Below are positions 28,188 through 33,502 of a stretch of DNA of 64,000 nt, piece after piece. The DNA comes from Gammaproteobacteria bacterium. GTDB lineage: Bacteria > Pseudomonadota > Gammaproteobacteria > Steroidobacterales > GCA-2729495. The position numbers were made by a program, and so were the translations under genes. The first letter of the stretch is position 1; every line of letters begins with the position of its first letter. The stretch lies in the NCBI GenBank assembly GCA_965221985.1, contig OZ244928.1, forward strand, positions 535,198-599,197, in the 5' to 3' direction. The notes under the pieces are model-generated. The model was given only the letters and a program-made list of their open reading frames with translations. It was not told the DNA's origin and made no database searches.

Positions 28188-28264
28188 GCTGATGTAGCTC
28201 AATTTGGCAGAGCAGCTGTCTTGTAAACAGCAGGTTGTGAGTTCGAGGCTCACCGTCAGCTCCA
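28188..28264 (+). tRNA. tRNA-Thr(UGU), CCA encoded
   Basis: Hand fold: acceptor GCTGATG/CGTCAGC, D GCTC..GAGC, anticodon stem GCTGT/ACAGC with loop CTTGTAA, T-arm GTGAGTTCGAGGCTCAC. Confidence 0.75.
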
Positions 28265-28270
28265 GTTTTC

Positions 28271-28355
28271 GGAGAGGTTTTCACTGGCAAGAAGCCCTGG
28301 CTGTAAACCAGGCGCCTAATGGGCTTTGTGGGTTCGACTCCTACCCTCTCCACCA
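28271..28355 (+). tRNA. tRNA-Tyr(GUA), long variable arm, CCA encoded
   Basis: Acceptor GGAGAGG/CCTCTCC. Anticodon stem CCTGG/CCAGG with loop CTGTAAA. T-loop GGTTCGACTCC. Confidence 0.8.
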
Positions 28356-28358
28356 AAT

Positions 28359-28434
28359 GGATCGGTAGCTCAATCGGTAGAGCGGTCGGCTGAAGACCGA
28401 CGCGTCGGTGGTTCAATTCCATCCCGGTCCACCA
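28359..28434 (+). tRNA. tRNA-Phe(GAA), CCA encoded (island copy, distinct from the attachment-site tRNA-Phe)
   Basis: Anticodon stem GTCGG/CCGAC with loop CTGAAGA. T-loop GGTTCAATTCC. Confidence 0.85.
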
Positions 28435-28435
28435 A

Positions 28436-28510
28436 TGGCATGTAGCTCAATGGTAGAGCGTCCGCCTGTTAAGCGGAAAGGTGTAGGTTCGAGTCCTACC
28501 GTGCCAGCCA
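28436..28510 (+). tRNA. tRNA-Asn(GUU), CCA encoded
   Basis: Anticodon stem TCCGC/GCGGA with loop CTGTTAA. T-loop GGTTCGAGTCC. Confidence 0.85.
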
Positions 28511-28516
28511 GATTCT

Positions 28517-28592
28517 GGGGGATTAGTTCAGTTGGTTGAACGTCGTCTTTGCAAGGCGAATGAGCGCGGTTCGAATCCGCGATCCTCCACCA
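28517..28592 (+). tRNA. tRNA-Ala(UGC), CCA encoded
   Basis: Acceptor GGGGGAT/ATCCTCC. Anticodon loop TTTGCAA. T-loop GGTTCGAATCC. Confidence 0.75.
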
Positions 28593-29065
28593 ATCCACGA
28601 CTATCGGCTTCGGCCGAGGTTGTGACTAGCGGCCTGGCGCTGCTAACCGTCGGCAACGGCGGGAAAGGAACGCTCCCATGGCGTTTCGCCGAAACTTAGG
28701 TTTCGGTCATTCCAGGCAAGTTCGGCCTCCCTTAGTTCTCGGCATTGCCGGGGATAGCGGCCAAGCGATGCGCGGAAGTAGTGCGACTGACGCACCGACT
28801 AACGTCGGGAATGCGGGTCCGCGAAAGAACACGTGGTGGTGCTACCCGCTACACCAACATCGTCAACCGTGAGAGGTAACGAATAGTGCAGGTAAGTGCG
28901 AGCTTTGCAGGCGAGTGCGACTGCGCAGAGGGCGAGGGTTCTGGCGTGCAGCCAGCGTCCTCGTCATCGGTCAAGTAACCGGCAGGTGAACGACATTCGG
29001 CGTGTTGTATTTCGTTGCCCAAAAGGCAACGAAGCGACTGAGGCGCGCACGTCGCAATGGGACTA

Positions 29066-29140
29066 GCGTTTTTAGCTCAGTGGTAGAGCTATCGACTTCT
29101 ACTCGATTGGTCGCGGGTTCGAATCCCGCATTACGCACCA
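29066..29140 (+). tRNA. tRNA-Arg(UCU)-like with two acceptor-stem mismatches. Possibly a pseudo or non-canonical tRNA
   Basis: D GCTCAGTGGTAGAGC. Anticodon stem ATCGA/TCGAT with loop CTTCTAC. T-arm GCGGGTTCGAATCCCGC. Acceptor GCGTTTT/ATTACGC with U-U at 5-68 and 6-67. Confidence 0.5.
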
Positions 29141-29492
29141 AACAGTAAACGCAAAGACGCGCCCCGGTACGTGTCGAAAGTGGCTTAAGGCCGAAGCCTT
29201 CGGGTAATTCGGCGGTTTGAACAGCCGCAAGCTGTTCTGACCTTGGCAGTGCGCCGCACGGTTGGGTAGCCCCCATTCAGAGCCTCGCAAGGCTCACGGT
29301 AAGCAAATTGCTGACTAGATGCGTACGACGAGTGAATCGCCTCACTCTGAAAAAGGCAGTCATGACTAACTACCGTCATGCCGGCGCAAGCCGGGTGGCG
29401 GTGGACACACGGGCAACTGTCGCCGTGCAGGCGGCAGGTACTCCCGCAAAAGGTTGGTCGCAAACGGCCTAGTCTCAGCCGTTTTCTATTTC

Positions 29493-29567
29493 GCTGCGGT
29501 AGCTCAATGGCAGAGCATCGGATTGTCGATCCGAAAGATGTCGGTTCAAGTCCGATTCGCAGCGCCA
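29493..29567 (+). tRNA. tRNA-Asp(GUC), CCA encoded
   Basis: Anticodon stem TCGGA/TCCGA with loop TTGTCGA. T-loop GGTTCAAGTCC. Confidence 0.85.
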
Positions 29568-29575
29568 GTTTCCAT

Positions 29576-29651
29576 GATCCGGTGGGCGAATGGTTAAGCC
29601 ACGAGGCCTTCAACCTCGTAATTGCAGGTTCGAATCCTGTCCGGATTACCA
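29576..29651 (+). tRNA. tRNA-Glu(UUC) with C33 in place of the universal U33, CCA encoded
   Basis: Anticodon stem CGAGG/CCTCG with loop CCTTCAA. T-loop GGTTCGAATCC. Acceptor GATCCGG/CCGGATT. Confidence 0.65.
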
Positions 29652-29726
29652 CACATGCGAGTTTGTACTACTCGCAATTCGATCGTCGCGAAGCGACTCA
29701 TTCTTAAACAGGCTCGAGGAGGACAC

Positions 29727-29954
29727 ATGAACATCAAAGATATTGTGAAAGACAACACCGTTCGATTTGTTCGGTATCGACAAGGAATCGCCTACTACGG
29801 CGTGAATGTACCAGCAGGCGGCGCGTATGTTTTCCCTGTTCCGCTCGAGGACATCGGTGACGCAACCCTTGAGCTCGAAGACAGAGCAATCATGTTTATG
29901 CGCTACATCAAACGCGCAATCAGCGACGGGTCATTTGTTCCTCTGGCGTCATGA
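29727..29954 (+). CDS. Small hypothetical protein (75 aa) embedded in the tRNA array
   Basis: Strong RBS GAGGAGGA 6 nt upstream of ATG 29727 (MNIKDIVKDNTVRFVRYRQGIAYYGVNVPAGGAY..). The track ORF 29622-29954 is a spurious N-terminal extension that runs through tRNA-Glu. Confidence 0.45.
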   Translation: MNIKDIVKDNTVRFVRYRQGIAYYGVNVPAGGAYVFPVPLEDIGDATLELEDRAIMFMRYIKRAISDGSFVPLAS

Positions 29955-29960
29955 CTTTGT

Positions 29961-30036
29961 AGACCGATAGCTCAGTGAGTAGAGCGCGCGACTGATATTC
30001 GCGAGGTCGGCTGTGCAACTCAGCCTCGGTCTACCA
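29961..30036 (+). tRNA. tRNA-Ile(GAU) with an atypical T-loop (TGCAACT), CCA encoded
   Basis: D GCTCAGTGAGTAGAGC. Anticodon stem CGCGA/TCGCG with loop CTGATAT. T-stem GGCTG/CAGCC. Confidence 0.6.
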
Positions 30037-30042
30037 CTTTTT

Positions 30043-30120
30043 CTGGAAGTAGCTCAGCCTGGTCAGAGTCCTCGGCTTGGAACCGAGATGCCGCTGGTTC
30101 GAATCCAGCCTTCCAGACCA
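30043..30120 (+). tRNA. tRNA-Pro(UGG), CCA encoded
   Basis: Acceptor CTGGAAG/CTTCCAG. Anticodon stem CTCGG/CCGAG with loop CTTGGAA. T-loop GGTTCGAATCC. Confidence 0.8.
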
Positions 30121-32690: not shown

Positions 32691-32691
32691 C

Positions 32692-32768
32692 ACGGCTGTA
32701 GCTCAGCGGATTAGAGCGCGACTCTGCGAAGGTCGAGGTCACAGGTTCGAATCCTGTCAGCTGTACCA
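32692..32768 (+). tRNA. tRNA-Arg(GCG), an unusual anticodon for bacteria, CCA encoded
   Basis: D GCTCAGCGGATTAGAGC. Anticodon stem CGACT/GGTCG with loop CTGCGAA. T-loop GGTTCGAATCC. Confidence 0.6.
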
Positions 32769-32776
32769 ATTACTAT

Positions 32777-32850
32777 TCGGCGCTCGTCCAATGGCAGGAT
32801 GCGAGACTTTGAATCTCGAGATCGTGGTTCGAGTCCACGGCGCCGAGCCA
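32777..32850 (+). tRNA. tRNA-Gln(UUG), CCA encoded
   Basis: Acceptor TCGGCGC/GCGCCGA. Anticodon stem CGAGA/TCTCG with loop CTTTGAA. T-loop GGTTCGAGTCC. Confidence 0.8.
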
Positions 32851-32857
32851 GGACAAA

Positions 32858-32931
32858 TGGTCAGTCGTCTAATGGTAGGACTGCGGCTTCCAAACCCGCT
32901 AATCGGCGTTCGAATCGTCGCTGGCCAGCCA
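32858..32931 (+). tRNA. tRNA-Trp(CCA), CCA encoded
   Basis: Acceptor TGGTCAG/CTGGCCA. Anticodon loop TTCCAAA. T-loop GCGTTCGAATCGTC. Confidence 0.7.
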
Positions 32932-32934
32932 CTT

Positions 32935-33008
32935 CATGCCGTGGCCGAACGGTTAGGCGCGAGGTTGCAACCCTCGTCATCTCGGTTCAAGTCCGAGCGG
33001 CATGTCCA
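32935..33008 (+). tRNA. tRNA-Cys(GCA), CCA encoded
   Basis: Acceptor CATGCCG/CGGCATG. Anticodon stem CGAGG/CCTCG with loop TTGCAAC. T-loop GGTTCAAGTCC. Confidence 0.75.
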
Positions 33009-33012
33009 ACTC

Positions 33013-33091
33013 TCCCCAGTAGCTCAGCCAGGTGTAGAGCAACCGTCTTATATGCGGTTGGTCGCTGGTTCAATTCCAGCCTGGGGGACCA
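33013..33091 (+). tRNA. tRNA-Ile(UAU)? A rare AUA-decoding anticodon. CCA encoded
   Basis: D GCTCAGCCAGGTGTAGAGC. Anticodon stem ACCGT/GCGGT with loop CTTATAT. T-loop GGTTCAATTCC. Confidence 0.55.
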
Positions 33092-33092
33092 A

Positions 33093-33170
33093 ACCCTCGT
33101 AGCTCAATGGATCCAGAGCACCGAGCTTCTACCTCGGGTGTTGCAGGTTCGAGTCCTGCCGAGGGTGCCA
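33093..33170 (+). tRNA. tRNA-Arg(UCU), CCA encoded
   Basis: Acceptor ACCCTCG/CGAGGGT. Anticodon stem CCGAG/CTCGG with loop CTTCTAC. T-loop GGTTCGAGTCC. Confidence 0.8.
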
Positions 33171-33178
33171 ACAACTAA

Positions 33179-33257
33179 GGCCGTCTGACGGGAACTAGGC
33201 ATACCTACCTGTCTTAGAAACAGGTGTTTCTCGGTTCGACTCCGAGGGCGGCTACCA
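33179..33257 (+). tRNA. Non-canonical tRNA-Leu(UAG)-like: short variable arm and an atypical D-arm. CCA encoded
   Basis: Anticodon stem CCTGT/ACAGG with loop CTTAGAA. T-arm CTCGGTTCGACTCCGAG. D-region TGACGGGAACTAGGCATACCT has no clear 4-bp D-stem. Confidence 0.5.
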
Positions 33258-33262
33258 ACATT

Positions 33263-33340
33263 GCGGATCTGAAGGGAACAGGCATACCTCGATGGCTTAA
33301 AACCATTGGCATCCCGGTTCGATTCCGGGGGTCCGCACCA
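33263..33340 (+). tRNA. Non-canonical tRNA-Leu(UAA)-like, CCA encoded
   Basis: Acceptor GCGGATC/GGTCCGC. Anticodon stem GATGG/CCATT with loop CTTAAAA. T-arm CCCGGTTCGATTCCGGG. D-region TGAAGGGAACAGGCATACCT. Confidence 0.5.
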
Positions 33341-33341
33341 C

Positions 33342-33419
33342 GCGCAGGTGACGGGAACGGCATACCTGGGTAGCTCAAAACTACTTGCTTCCGCGTTCGA
33401 ATCGCGGGCTGCGCACCAA
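33342..33419 (+). tRNA. Non-canonical tRNA-Leu(CAA)-like, CCA encoded
   Basis: Anticodon stem GGTAG/CTACT with loop CTCAAAA. T-arm CCGCGTTCGAATCGCGG. D-region TGACGGGAACGGCATACCT. Confidence 0.5.
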
Positions 33420-33423
33420 CTAC

Positions 33424-33502
33424 GCGGATCTGAAGGGAATTGGTTATACCTCGGTGGCTCAGACCCACCGGCATCCCGGTTCGACTCCGGGGGTCCGTAC
33501 CA
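33424..33502 (+). tRNA. Non-canonical tRNA-Leu(CAG)-like, CCA encoded
   Basis: Anticodon stem GGTGG/CCACC with loop CTCAGAC. T-arm CCCGGTTCGACTCCGGG. D-region TGAAGGGAATTGGTTATACCT. Confidence 0.5.

Follow-up and report, generated by a model that had tools for sequence, protein, structure and literature searches.

Why does a bacterial chromosome carry, within one integrative island, tRNA genes for all 20 amino acids? The question is raised by a 64,000-nucleotide stretch of DNA from a gammaproteobacterium (GenBank assembly GCA_965221985.1, contig OZ244928.1, positions 535,198 to 599,197 of the forward strand), referred to here as the window. The original prediction, made from the letters of this DNA, described positions 28188-33502 as a self-sufficient array of 29 tRNA genes. 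We found that the window holds a new example, from marine Woeseiaceae-like bacteria, of the phage-derived tRNA array units of mycobacteria, plasmids and large phages. The array is part of a conserved cassette that also holds a GOLLD RNA, an RtcB RNA ligase and other protein genes, and the cassette may serve as a backup for the tRNA pool.

ARAGORN and Rfam together placed 29 tRNA genes for all 20 amino acids in two blocks on the forward strand of 28188-33502. With default settings ARAGORN detected 28 of them, at 28188-30974 and 32692-33502, which is far more than a handful. Relaxed settings added a 68-nt tRNA-Met(CAU) at 30638-30705, and this gene scored 36.4 bits against a gathering score of 29 in Rfam with lax filters. 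Gene number, the two blocks and the anticodons were the same as had been read from the sequence by hand. An encoded CCA end, which had been claimed for nearly all genes, was found in 29 of 29, and the spacers are mostly 1-10 nt long. With 29 genes in 5315 bp (5.5 per kb) the array lies within the definition of a tRNA array unit, at least 20 tRNA genes in one region and at least two per kb, as given by Tran et al. (PMC4758250). The Rfam tRNA model backed 24 of the 29 genes and did not match the four Leu genes and Ser-UGA; these five are real tRNA genes to judge from their covariation across related loci.

The first block starts with tRNAs Thr-UGU, Tyr-GUA, Phe-GAA, Asn-GUU and Ala-UGC (28188-28592; ARAGORN and Rfam), followed by Arg-UCU (29066-29140; ARAGORN, and 68.7 bits in Rfam), Asp-GUC and Glu-UUC (29493-29651; both programs), Ile-GAU, Pro-UGG, Ser-UGA, His-GUG with an encoded G-1, Ser-GCU, Arg-UCG, Lys-UUU and Gly-GCC (29961-30637), Met-CAU (30638-30709), Val-UAC (30713-30789; both programs) and a second Thr-UGU (30901-30975). 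The second block contains Arg-GCG, Gln-UUG, Trp-CCA, Cys-GCA, Ile-UAU and a second Arg-UCU (32692-33170; both programs), and ends with four paralogous short tRNA-Leu genes of 77-79 nt with the anticodons UAG, UAA, CAA and CAG (33179-33502). The larger gaps are occupied by the GOLLD RNA (28593-29481), a 75-aa open reading frame (ORF) of a phage protein family (29727-29954) and an SPFH gene (31356-32645).

The array is accessory and not a core tRNA set. It lies on an island of 14.5 kb (27.08-41.60 kb of the window) that is inserted at the 3' end of the host tRNA-Phe(GAA) gene, located on the reverse strand at 41613-41688 and found by both ARAGORN and Rfam. The 3' half of this gene is the right attachment site (attR; the feature with the gene spans 41604-41688). 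At the left end of the island the displaced 3' half of tRNA-Phe forms attL (27077-27134), which is 98% identical to 41604-41661 and includes an exact direct repeat of 55 bp (27077-27131 and 41604-41658). A tyrosine integrase gene (40426-41547, forward strand; Pfam PF00589; phrog_1 at 1.7e-44) adjoins the intact host tRNA-Phe. In a relative, L038, a 3.49-Mb contig with a MutY 87% identical to that of the window, collinearity with window positions 53035-41605 extends over 11.4 kb at 81.7% identity and stops at the 3' end of tRNA-Phe, where the tRNA gene is joined directly to the sequence of window 27134-27039. This empty site identifies 27.08-41.60 kb as a 14.5-kb insertion. The integrase beside an intact tRNA gene, the direct repeat at the far end and the empty site are together those of a tRNA-gene-targeting integrative island. 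The predicted accessory array on an att-flanked, integrase-bearing island beside RtcB is thus backed by the repeats and the empty site. What the prediction had overlooked, while recognizing the island, were the GOLLD RNA, the conserved cassette, the leader signals, the composite structure, the phage ancestry and the close precedents.

The cassette is 9.2-9.4 kb long and was found at 21 genome loci and on 24 metagenome contigs. Its parts are arranged on one strand in the order XRE regulator, leader, tRNAs, GOLLD, SPFH, tRNAs, HNH endonuclease, RtcB and GNAT-like protein. Homology to the window extends from about 27240 to 35560-36415, that is from XRE through RtcB, and p308, the GNAT-like protein, is included in some loci only. 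The SPFH gene has relatives with 72-96% identity at the 21 genome loci, in metagenome-assembled genomes (MAGs) labelled Woeseiaceae, Gammaproteobacteria, Pseudomonadota or Lysobacterales, with the exception of one short contig binned as Rhodothermales. The 24 further metagenome contigs with the same parts were found in a search with a motif of the GOLLD 5' domain.

All protein genes of the cassette are on the forward strand. The first encodes an XRE-type helix-turn-helix (HTH) regulator (27301-27699), with the HTH visible in the translation and 67-93% identity in 13 loci by tblastn. The 75-aa ORF, p75 (29727-29954), belongs to phrog_20427 (E 2.6e-13), and the SPFH/Band-7 protein (31356-32645) matched Pfam PF01145 at 8.2e-27. 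The HNH endonuclease associated with the array (33540-34115) matched Pfam HNH_5 and HNH and the HNH families of PHROG, and RtcB (34116-35543) matched Pfam PF01139 with 293 bits. The last, p308, is a 308-aa protein with a putative remote GNAT-like core (35571-36497), for which sequence searches of PDB and Pfam gave no matches. For the SPFH gene either GTG at 31356 or ATG at 31503 could be the start codon, and both have a strong Shine-Dalgarno sequence. Because its first 32-56 codons and the DNA of 31290-31488 have no counterpart in several relatives, the short form starting at 31503 may be the conserved one.

Comparison with the relatives gave ratios of non-synonymous to synonymous substitution rates (dN/dS) of 0.06-0.14 for SPFH, 0.02-0.05 for RtcB and 0.05-0.11 for HNH, and the three proteins are thus under strong purifying selection. 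RtcB keeps in the alignment all catalytic residues of Pyrococcus RtcB, with its activity predicted; the metal-binding and GMP-histidine positions are those which we take to be equivalent to Pyrococcus D95, C98, N202, H203, H234, H329 and H404. The synonymous divergence (dS) between the window and locus L013 differed between genes, being 0.29 for SPFH vs 0.94 for RtcB, which suggests a mosaic formed by recombination.

In the loci examined the cassette is flanked by different, ordinary chromosomal genes in each case. We searched for genes of the integrase module within 10 kb of the cassette in the 21 related genome loci, and found around it no integrase homologue, other gene of that module, tRNA-Phe fragment or flanking direct repeat. 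The att structure of the window is therefore not general. The number of tRNA genes in the cassette loci ranged from 0 to 28, and L020, from a Woeseiaceae MAG (CBDCZL010000018.1), has the gene order of the window. This locus has been invaded by insertion sequences (IS) at 3525-6451 and 13282-15604; its XRE and leader region holds two DDE transposases, and its RtcB gene is interrupted by an IS21-type IstA/IstB pair.

How complete is the array as a set of adaptors? By standard wobble rules, applied by hand, its anticodons read 59 of the 61 sense codons, and the four-codon boxes showed a strong U34 bias. The self-sufficiency originally proposed did not hold. No reader for the codons GGA and GGG was present among the 29 genes, the sole Met gene looks initiator-like and the second Thr(UGU) gene appears to be a drifted copy. 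In L020 a Gly-UCC gene is located between Pro and Ser, and the window has no such gene. The tRNA-Met(CAU) looks like an initiator: its anticodon stem has three G-C pairs at the base, positions 1 and 72 form a U1.G72 pair and the D arm is reduced.

At the second Thr(UGU) gene (30901-30975) 19 sequences share a conserved body, and the anticodon loop drifts. Its homologues have mostly the anticodon CAU, and also CUU, UCU, CAA, GAA and GUU, and loops of 6 or 8 nt occur as well; the position of U33 is often C, there is a mismatch between positions 1 and 72, and the 3' end is variable. By this comparison the gene is a drifted copy of the tRNA-Met(CAU) of most relatives. The same combination of a locus-variable anticodon loop and a conserved body is seen at the homologous sites in L013-L032, about 390 nt upstream of SPFH, and the gene seems to be kept for a purpose other than decoding.

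The four short tRNA-Leu genes have A73 as discriminator, a D region that is odd yet invariant and, where the long arm would be, a variable loop of 5 nt. When 24 copies from 14 loci were aligned, 99.6% of the cells were paired and 14 of the 20 pairs had compensatory changes, values that were matched in none of 500 shuffles. We considered them as a structural novelty, but several phages already have homologues annotated as 78-nt tRNA-Leu(tag) genes, namely Acinetobacter phages (about 165 kb), Pseudomonas phage PPSC2 and Aeromonas and Salmonella phages. Because of these annotated homologues the short tRNA-Leu can be assigned to a phage type of tRNA-Leu. The E. coli leucyl-tRNA synthetase requires A73 and contacts of the D and T loops and not the long arm or the anticodon (PMC9976931), and by analogy charging of the short tRNA-Leu is plausible. 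The tRNA-Ser(UGA) is of class II with G73, and its variable arm and T stem covary across the loci.

Some relatives have an alternative first tRNA block, running Asn-Asp-Val-Leu-Glu-His-Cys-Pro-Ile-Thr-Met and onwards (L013 214-1975; L015 5265-6989; L019 6405-8541; L022 5527-6004; L028 4027-6611). In this block several tRNAs have an unusual length of just 68-71 nt and their anticodon at position 29-31, a hint of reduced D arms.

Behind tRNA-Ala there is a GOLLD RNA (28593-29481, forward strand), a family reportedly described by Weinberg et al. in 2009. Its 3' domain and linker (28995-29481) matched Rfam RF02032 over model positions 1-416 with 154.9 bits against a gathering score of 150 (E 1.8e-41), and the conserved, structured 5' domain of about 400 nt (28593-28994) fills the entire gap behind tRNA-Ala. 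Compensatory changes were found for 43 of 100 predicted pairs in the 5' domain (16 sequences) and for 65 of 99 pairs in the 3' domain (20 sequences). The first tRNA-Arg(UCU), at 29066-29140, is located inside the variable linker of the model; at this position the relatives have CCU, CCA or odd anticodon loops vs UCU in the window. Full-model score, structured 5' and 3' domains and a tRNA-bearing variable linker place the RNA in the GOLLD family. Published GOLLD RNAs, studied by cryo-EM, likewise combine a 5' domain that diverges with a 3' domain that is conserved, joined by a linker able to hold a tRNA inside a 14-mer cage; they are found in phages and prophages near tRNA islands (PMC12286853). 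The window copy shares with the family the full-model match, this domain structure, the linker tRNA and the location in a phage-type tRNA island, but it is barely over the threshold. Among seven other full-length copies searched with Rfam (L013, L014, L016, L022, L028, L029 and L030) only L028 passed the gathering score. Because the score of the window copy is marginal and just this one of the seven passes, GOLLD of the window type is best placed by sequence in a divergent subgroup.

In total seven genome loci have a full GOLLD and nine have the 5' domain only (L015, L017, L018, L019, L020, L023, L024, L025 and L032, with homologues of window 28603-29000). All nine are without the conserved 3' domain and the linker tRNA, and five of them (L015, L017, L018, L019 and L020) have an internal deletion of about 85 nt in the 5' domain. 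L020 carries the 5' domain only, yet has an otherwise complete array of 28 tRNAs. The exact 5'-domain motif gave zero matches in the viral contigs of IMG/VR.

Between the XRE gene and the first tRNA there is a conserved, apparently noncoding leader of 490 nt. A 77-aa ORF within it was rejected as a gene, as its substitutions showed no 3-periodicity and its amino-acid identity was lower than the nucleotide identity. Little RNA covariation was observed in the 17 aligned loci. The leader includes a predicted sigma-70-type promoter, TTGACA-N16-TATACT (27748-27775, forward strand; 11 of 12 consensus positions), with hexamers that are essentially invariant in these 17 loci, one -35 base being different in L028. 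An intrinsic-terminator-like hairpin with a T run follows on the same strand (28031-28066) and is a possible attenuator; its outer stem ACCCCGG...CCGGGGT and the T run are invariant in the 17 loci.

Behind the hairpin there is a 12-mer matching the boxA of ribosomal RNA (rrn) operons (CGCTCTTTAACAA, 28079-28091), with a GT-rich, boxC-like stretch after it (feature 28079-28105, forward strand). Positions 28079-28092, CGCTCTTTAACAAT, correspond to an rrn-type boxA in the leader of an untranslated operon, which in E. coli consists of UGCUCUUUA and the spacer ACAAU (PMC2724277). The 12-mer occurs a single time in the window, and in 25 other cassette loci it was found once each, on the array strand and upstream of the array. 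It is also present about 50 nt upstream of the first tRNA of an unrelated array of 27 tRNAs on a plasmid of Methylibium petroleiphilum, and the boxA core lies upstream of the tRNA array of a Variovorax plasmid. The sites of this boxA (GCTCTTTAACAA) or its core include 28079-28105 in the window, 7144-7155 in L036 and 2197-2208 in L037. Accessory tRNA arrays may in general use Nus-factor antitermination. That boxA precedes three unrelated tRNA arrays hints at a general way in which tRNA operons that are long and untranslated avoid Rho-dependent termination.

The cassette appears from its matches to be phage-derived. RtcB is 60-74% identical to genes on viral contigs of IMG/VR that are 11-436 kb long, most of them over 130 kb, and a tRNA array was located within 10 kb of 2 of 12 viral RtcB loci; no GOLLD was found in the seven viral RtcB loci searched with Rfam. 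The p75 protein has homologues in jumbo phages; one of them, an ORF of an uncultured 462-kb phage, shares 60% identity with it and is located beside tRNA genes. The HNH protein shares 44% identity with proteins from two phages, Ralstonia phage RsoM2USA and Salicola phage SCTP-2, the homologue in the latter being among nine tRNA genes, and 40-42% identity with HNH genes at the edges of the plasmid arrays of Methylibium (27 tRNAs) and Variovorax (42 tRNAs). With SPFH as query nothing was found in IMG/VR, and GenBank phages gave weak matches only.

A close phage precedent is Mesorhizobium phage Cp1R7A-A1 (MT188704.1), in which about 30 annotated tRNA genes start beside an HflK/HflC-like, SPFH-type gene. 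We also observed in it an unannotated GOLLD with an embedded tRNA (193.5 bits in Rfam; L063 4997-5459, equal to MT188704.1 ~38209-38671). The phage and the window share the array, the tRNA-bearing GOLLD, the SPFH-type gene and a short tRNA-Leu, 76-77 nt in the phage. The setting differs, being a 131-kb phage genome of lytic type in place of a chromosomal island. No significant sequence similarity connects the phage SPFH protein with that of the window, and no RtcB or HNH is annotated in the stretch examined. The megaplasmids of the betaproteobacteria Methylibium petroleiphilum PM1 (RPME01) and Variovorax sp. SRS16 (plasmid 2) share with the window the clustered tRNAs, 27 and 42 respectively, the HNH gene at the edge and a boxA motif before the first tRNA. 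They differ in having no GOLLD at the Rfam gathering score and no RtcB or SPFH gene in the stretches examined, and the replicons are plasmids of 0.6-0.8 Mb. Phage T4 repairs tRNAs with Pnkp and Rnl1 against the PrrC anticodon nuclease, and has the homing endonuclease SegB in its tRNA region. The likeness to the window is one of logic only, a phage tRNA cluster with RNA repair enzymes and a homing endonuclease favouring inheritance of the tRNA region; Pnkp, Rnl1 and the GIY-YIG enzyme SegB in T4 stand against RtcB and HNH in the window.

Mycobacterial tRNA array units with GOLLD and HNH were reportedly described by Morgado et al. in RNA Biology in 2020. Such arrays have 26-37 tRNA genes for 19-20 amino acids, redundant with the chromosome, one embedded HNH gene, a GOLLD with an internal tRNA or pseudo-tRNA, Ile-UAU and varied insertion sites (PMC5966550, PMC6582537, PMC12803027). 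In the clustered full-range tRNAs, the HNH, the tRNA-bearing GOLLD, the rare Ile-UAU and the varied genomic insertion they resemble the window, a likeness drawn from published descriptions. Their hosts are Actinomycetota, in contrast to the Woeseiaceae-like gammaproteobacterium, and RtcB, SPFH, XRE and the boxA leader are not reported in the published accounts (PMC5966550, PMC6582537, PMC12803027). The array of the integrative and conjugative element (ICE) of Acidithiobacillus ferrooxidans and a cyanobacterial plasmid tRNA operon are likewise accessory, borne by mobile elements and found in Gram-negative hosts, but the former is a large conjugative element and the latter a plasmid, in contrast to the 14.5-kb integrase island; set against the window by description only, neither is linked to GOLLD, HNH or RtcB in the available part of the source (PMC4758250).

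What could the cassette be for? Its parts are to all appearances functional and not decayed, as indicated by the Rfam scores of the tRNAs, the covariation, the low dN/dS and the intact RtcB residues. We judge the chances to be about even that it provides a backup tRNA supply together with RtcB repair against tRNA-cutting toxins or defence systems, a proposal that follows from the combination of a full divergent tRNA set, an intact RNA ligase, phage ancestry and regulated expression. Expression would be controlled in order by the XRE-type regulator, the sigma-70 promoter, the terminator hairpin as a possible attenuator and the rrn-type boxA, and the array would be made, like rRNA, as one long, mostly untranslated precursor under Nus-factor antitermination. 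RNase P and 3' processing enzymes would release 29 CCA-ended tRNAs, a U34-rich near-minimal set. The same precursor would yield the GOLLD RNA of about 890 nt with tRNA-Arg(UCU) in its linker, and would encode p75, SPFH, the HNH endonuclease, RtcB and the GNAT-like protein. We infer that co-transcription, antitermination and charging of the tRNAs together serve a protective function: translation could be kept running when anticodon nucleases, tRNase toxins or phage-defence systems cut or deplete tRNAs, through sequence-divergent replacement tRNAs and re-ligation of cut RNAs by RtcB. Homing-type recombination promoted by the HNH enzyme is the probable means by which the module is spread or maintained. 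In the literature tRNA array units have been viewed as putative anti-defence systems (PMC12803027).

A single hint for nuclease evasion came from tRNA-Phe, the one tRNA covered by the comparison of host and island and by the redundancy check. The two genes match at 61 of 78 aligned positions; position 37 is G in the island and A in the host, and the anticodon stems also differ. We also tried the explanation that the tRNAs supply rare codons of the cassette itself. Across 1602 codons its ORFs have a GC content at third positions of 0.63, equal to host genes, and AGA, AUA and UUA are seldom used. These counts ruled the explanation out, and with such host-like codon usage the array tRNAs are not for translating the cassette.

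Several observations weigh against the proposed backup and repair. In many related loci most tRNAs have been lost (0-6 genes left) and SPFH, HNH and RtcB kept, so the full array is dispensable in those genomes. No anticodon nuclease or tRNase toxin was identified nearby, and PADLOC gave for the cassette proteins no defence-system assignment, only weak similarities of HNH. The boxA lies downstream of the terminator hairpin and would therefore not help RNA polymerase through it. The host and island tRNAs have been compared for Phe only, and the model does not so far account for the functions of SPFH, p75, p308 and GOLLD.

Other explanations were weighed on the same evidence. The cassette could be a selfish relic, a piece of a jumbo phage or megaplasmid spread by HNH homing, integrase hitch-hiking and recombination with no benefit for host translation. 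We consider this unlikely, while noting that it agrees with the phage or plasmid relatives of all protein parts, the different chromosomal context at every locus examined, the IS invasion of one copy including its RtcB gene, the range of 0 to 28 tRNA genes and the unequal dS which indicates a recombining mosaic. It does not agree with strong purifying selection on the proteins (dN/dS 0.02-0.14), compensatory evolution in the tRNAs and GOLLD, an invariant regulatory leader and a codon usage that has come to match that of the host. On this evidence the parts are functional, but their function could serve the element instead of the host. A role in codon supplementation, with extra isoacceptors such as Arg-UCU, Ile-UAU and Leu-UAA for host or acquired genes rich in rare codons, would explain the dedicated readers of AGA/AGG, AUA and UUA and the two copies of Arg-UCU, one of them within GOLLD, and is among the proposals for the Acidithiobacillus ICE array according to the literature summarised in PMC4758250. 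It is rather improbable here, since the array covers all 20 amino acids and not chosen rare codons, the cassette ORFs hardly use those codons and match host usage, the island carries only about ten genes, and the linkage to RtcB, HNH and GOLLD is left unexplained.

There is a slim chance that the cassette forms an emergency translation kit, regulated and self-contained, and that GOLLD takes a direct part in protecting or repairing tRNAs. The GOLLD nanocage might then shelter the linker tRNA-Arg(UCU) or other tRNAs from anticodon nucleases, or alternatively serve RtcB and the GNAT-like protein as a scaffold for work on damaged tRNAs, and the divergent tRNAs, including the short phage-type tRNA-Leu set, would be nuclease-resistant substitutes. 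If this were true, the 5'-domain-only GOLLD variants would represent separable functional states. We regard it as very unlikely that the island is a phage satellite or defective prophage, induced by a helper and using tRNAs, GOLLD and RtcB to favour or block that helper. In favour are the small size and integrative nature of the element, its integrase, XRE regulator and ImmA/IrrE-type peptidase, the phage-family genes aboard and the rise of GOLLD expression during phage lysis in another system (PMC12286853); against this, no capsid, terminase, primase, replication or packaging-redirection gene was found among the island ORFs, and 21 of 21 related genome loci had no integrase or integrase-module gene within 10 kb. 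That the array is the ordinary and sole tRNA locus of the organism, an outcome the original prediction had named as fatal to itself, has next to no probability. All 20 amino acids are present and every gene encodes CCA, but the idea is refuted by the empty site of L038, a close relative without the whole segment, and the host tRNA-Phe and tRNA-Gly genes outside the array, the absence of GGA/GGG readers, the single Met gene and the inclusion of non-canonical, phage-type tRNAs also speak against it.

The mycobacterial and phage precedents lower the novelty of the array. Already known is the combination of phage arrays with GOLLD, SPFH-type genes, RtcB and short tRNA-Leu. New are the rrn-type boxA leader, the tight linkage of RtcB and the GNAT-like protein, the 5'-domain-only GOLLD variants and a composite island with an empty-site control; the lineage is new as well, and the form is unusually compact and well delimited. 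The linkage of tRNA array, GOLLD and HNH is thereby extended from mycobacteria and phages to a chromosomal island of abundant marine-sediment Gammaproteobacteria (Woeseiaceae-like). Selection acts on this conserved unit of 9 kb, in which regulator, promoter, attenuator-like hairpin and rrn-type boxA are all defined, and its physical linkage to an RtcB with intact catalytic residues gives a concrete, testable tie of GOLLD to tRNA replacement or repair. The approximately 45 related loci offer natural variants for experiments, with full or 5'-only GOLLD, 0-28 tRNAs and an IS-interrupted RtcB.

The island itself is composite. A 147-nt arm at 27095-27241 is repeated at 36509-36655 (84% identical), which suggests two related elements in tandem. 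Together with a degenerate internal att-like copy at 36491-36548 (62% identical) the arm repeat separates the tRNA cassette on the left from an integrase module of 5.1 kb on the right. Besides the integrase this module has, all on the reverse strand, an ImmA/IrrE (M78) peptidase (37101-37613; Pfam PF06114), a truncated IS481-type transposase with the HTH part only (37647-38381) and a putative esterase (39143-39853). The M78 peptidase resembles CapP, a regulator associated with the cyclic-oligonucleotide-based anti-phage signalling system CBASS (PADLOC capP, E 8.5e-33). Pfam and PHROGs scans found no capsid, terminase, tail, lysis or replication genes among the island ORFs, so the island does not count as a prophage, and with no relaxase or type IV secretion genes among the ORFs scanned with Pfam the 14.5-kb segment does not count as an ICE.

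Outside the island ARAGORN found two tRNA genes in the window, both on the reverse strand, the host tRNA-Phe(GAA) and a tRNA-Gly(CCC) at 52902-52975. The synteny with L038 stops at 53035, about 60 bp past tRNA-Gly(CCC), and beyond this point there are glycosyltransferase and methyltransferase genes, an rve-type transposase and a lower GC content; the region to the right of this gene may be a second tRNA-adjacent variable locus. Another variable region is located to the left of the island (22000-27076). It has no counterpart in L038 and a lower GC content, and contains a CoiA_N-like gene (23798-24667), a DUF222-HNH gene (24793-26169) and a 42-nt repeat at 22281 and 23447. Directly beside the integration site at tRNA-Phe there are EgtB-like and EgtD-like genes for ergothioneine synthesis (41870-44178), and both Egt gene families are found at the same position in L038, in the region of 81.7% DNA identity.

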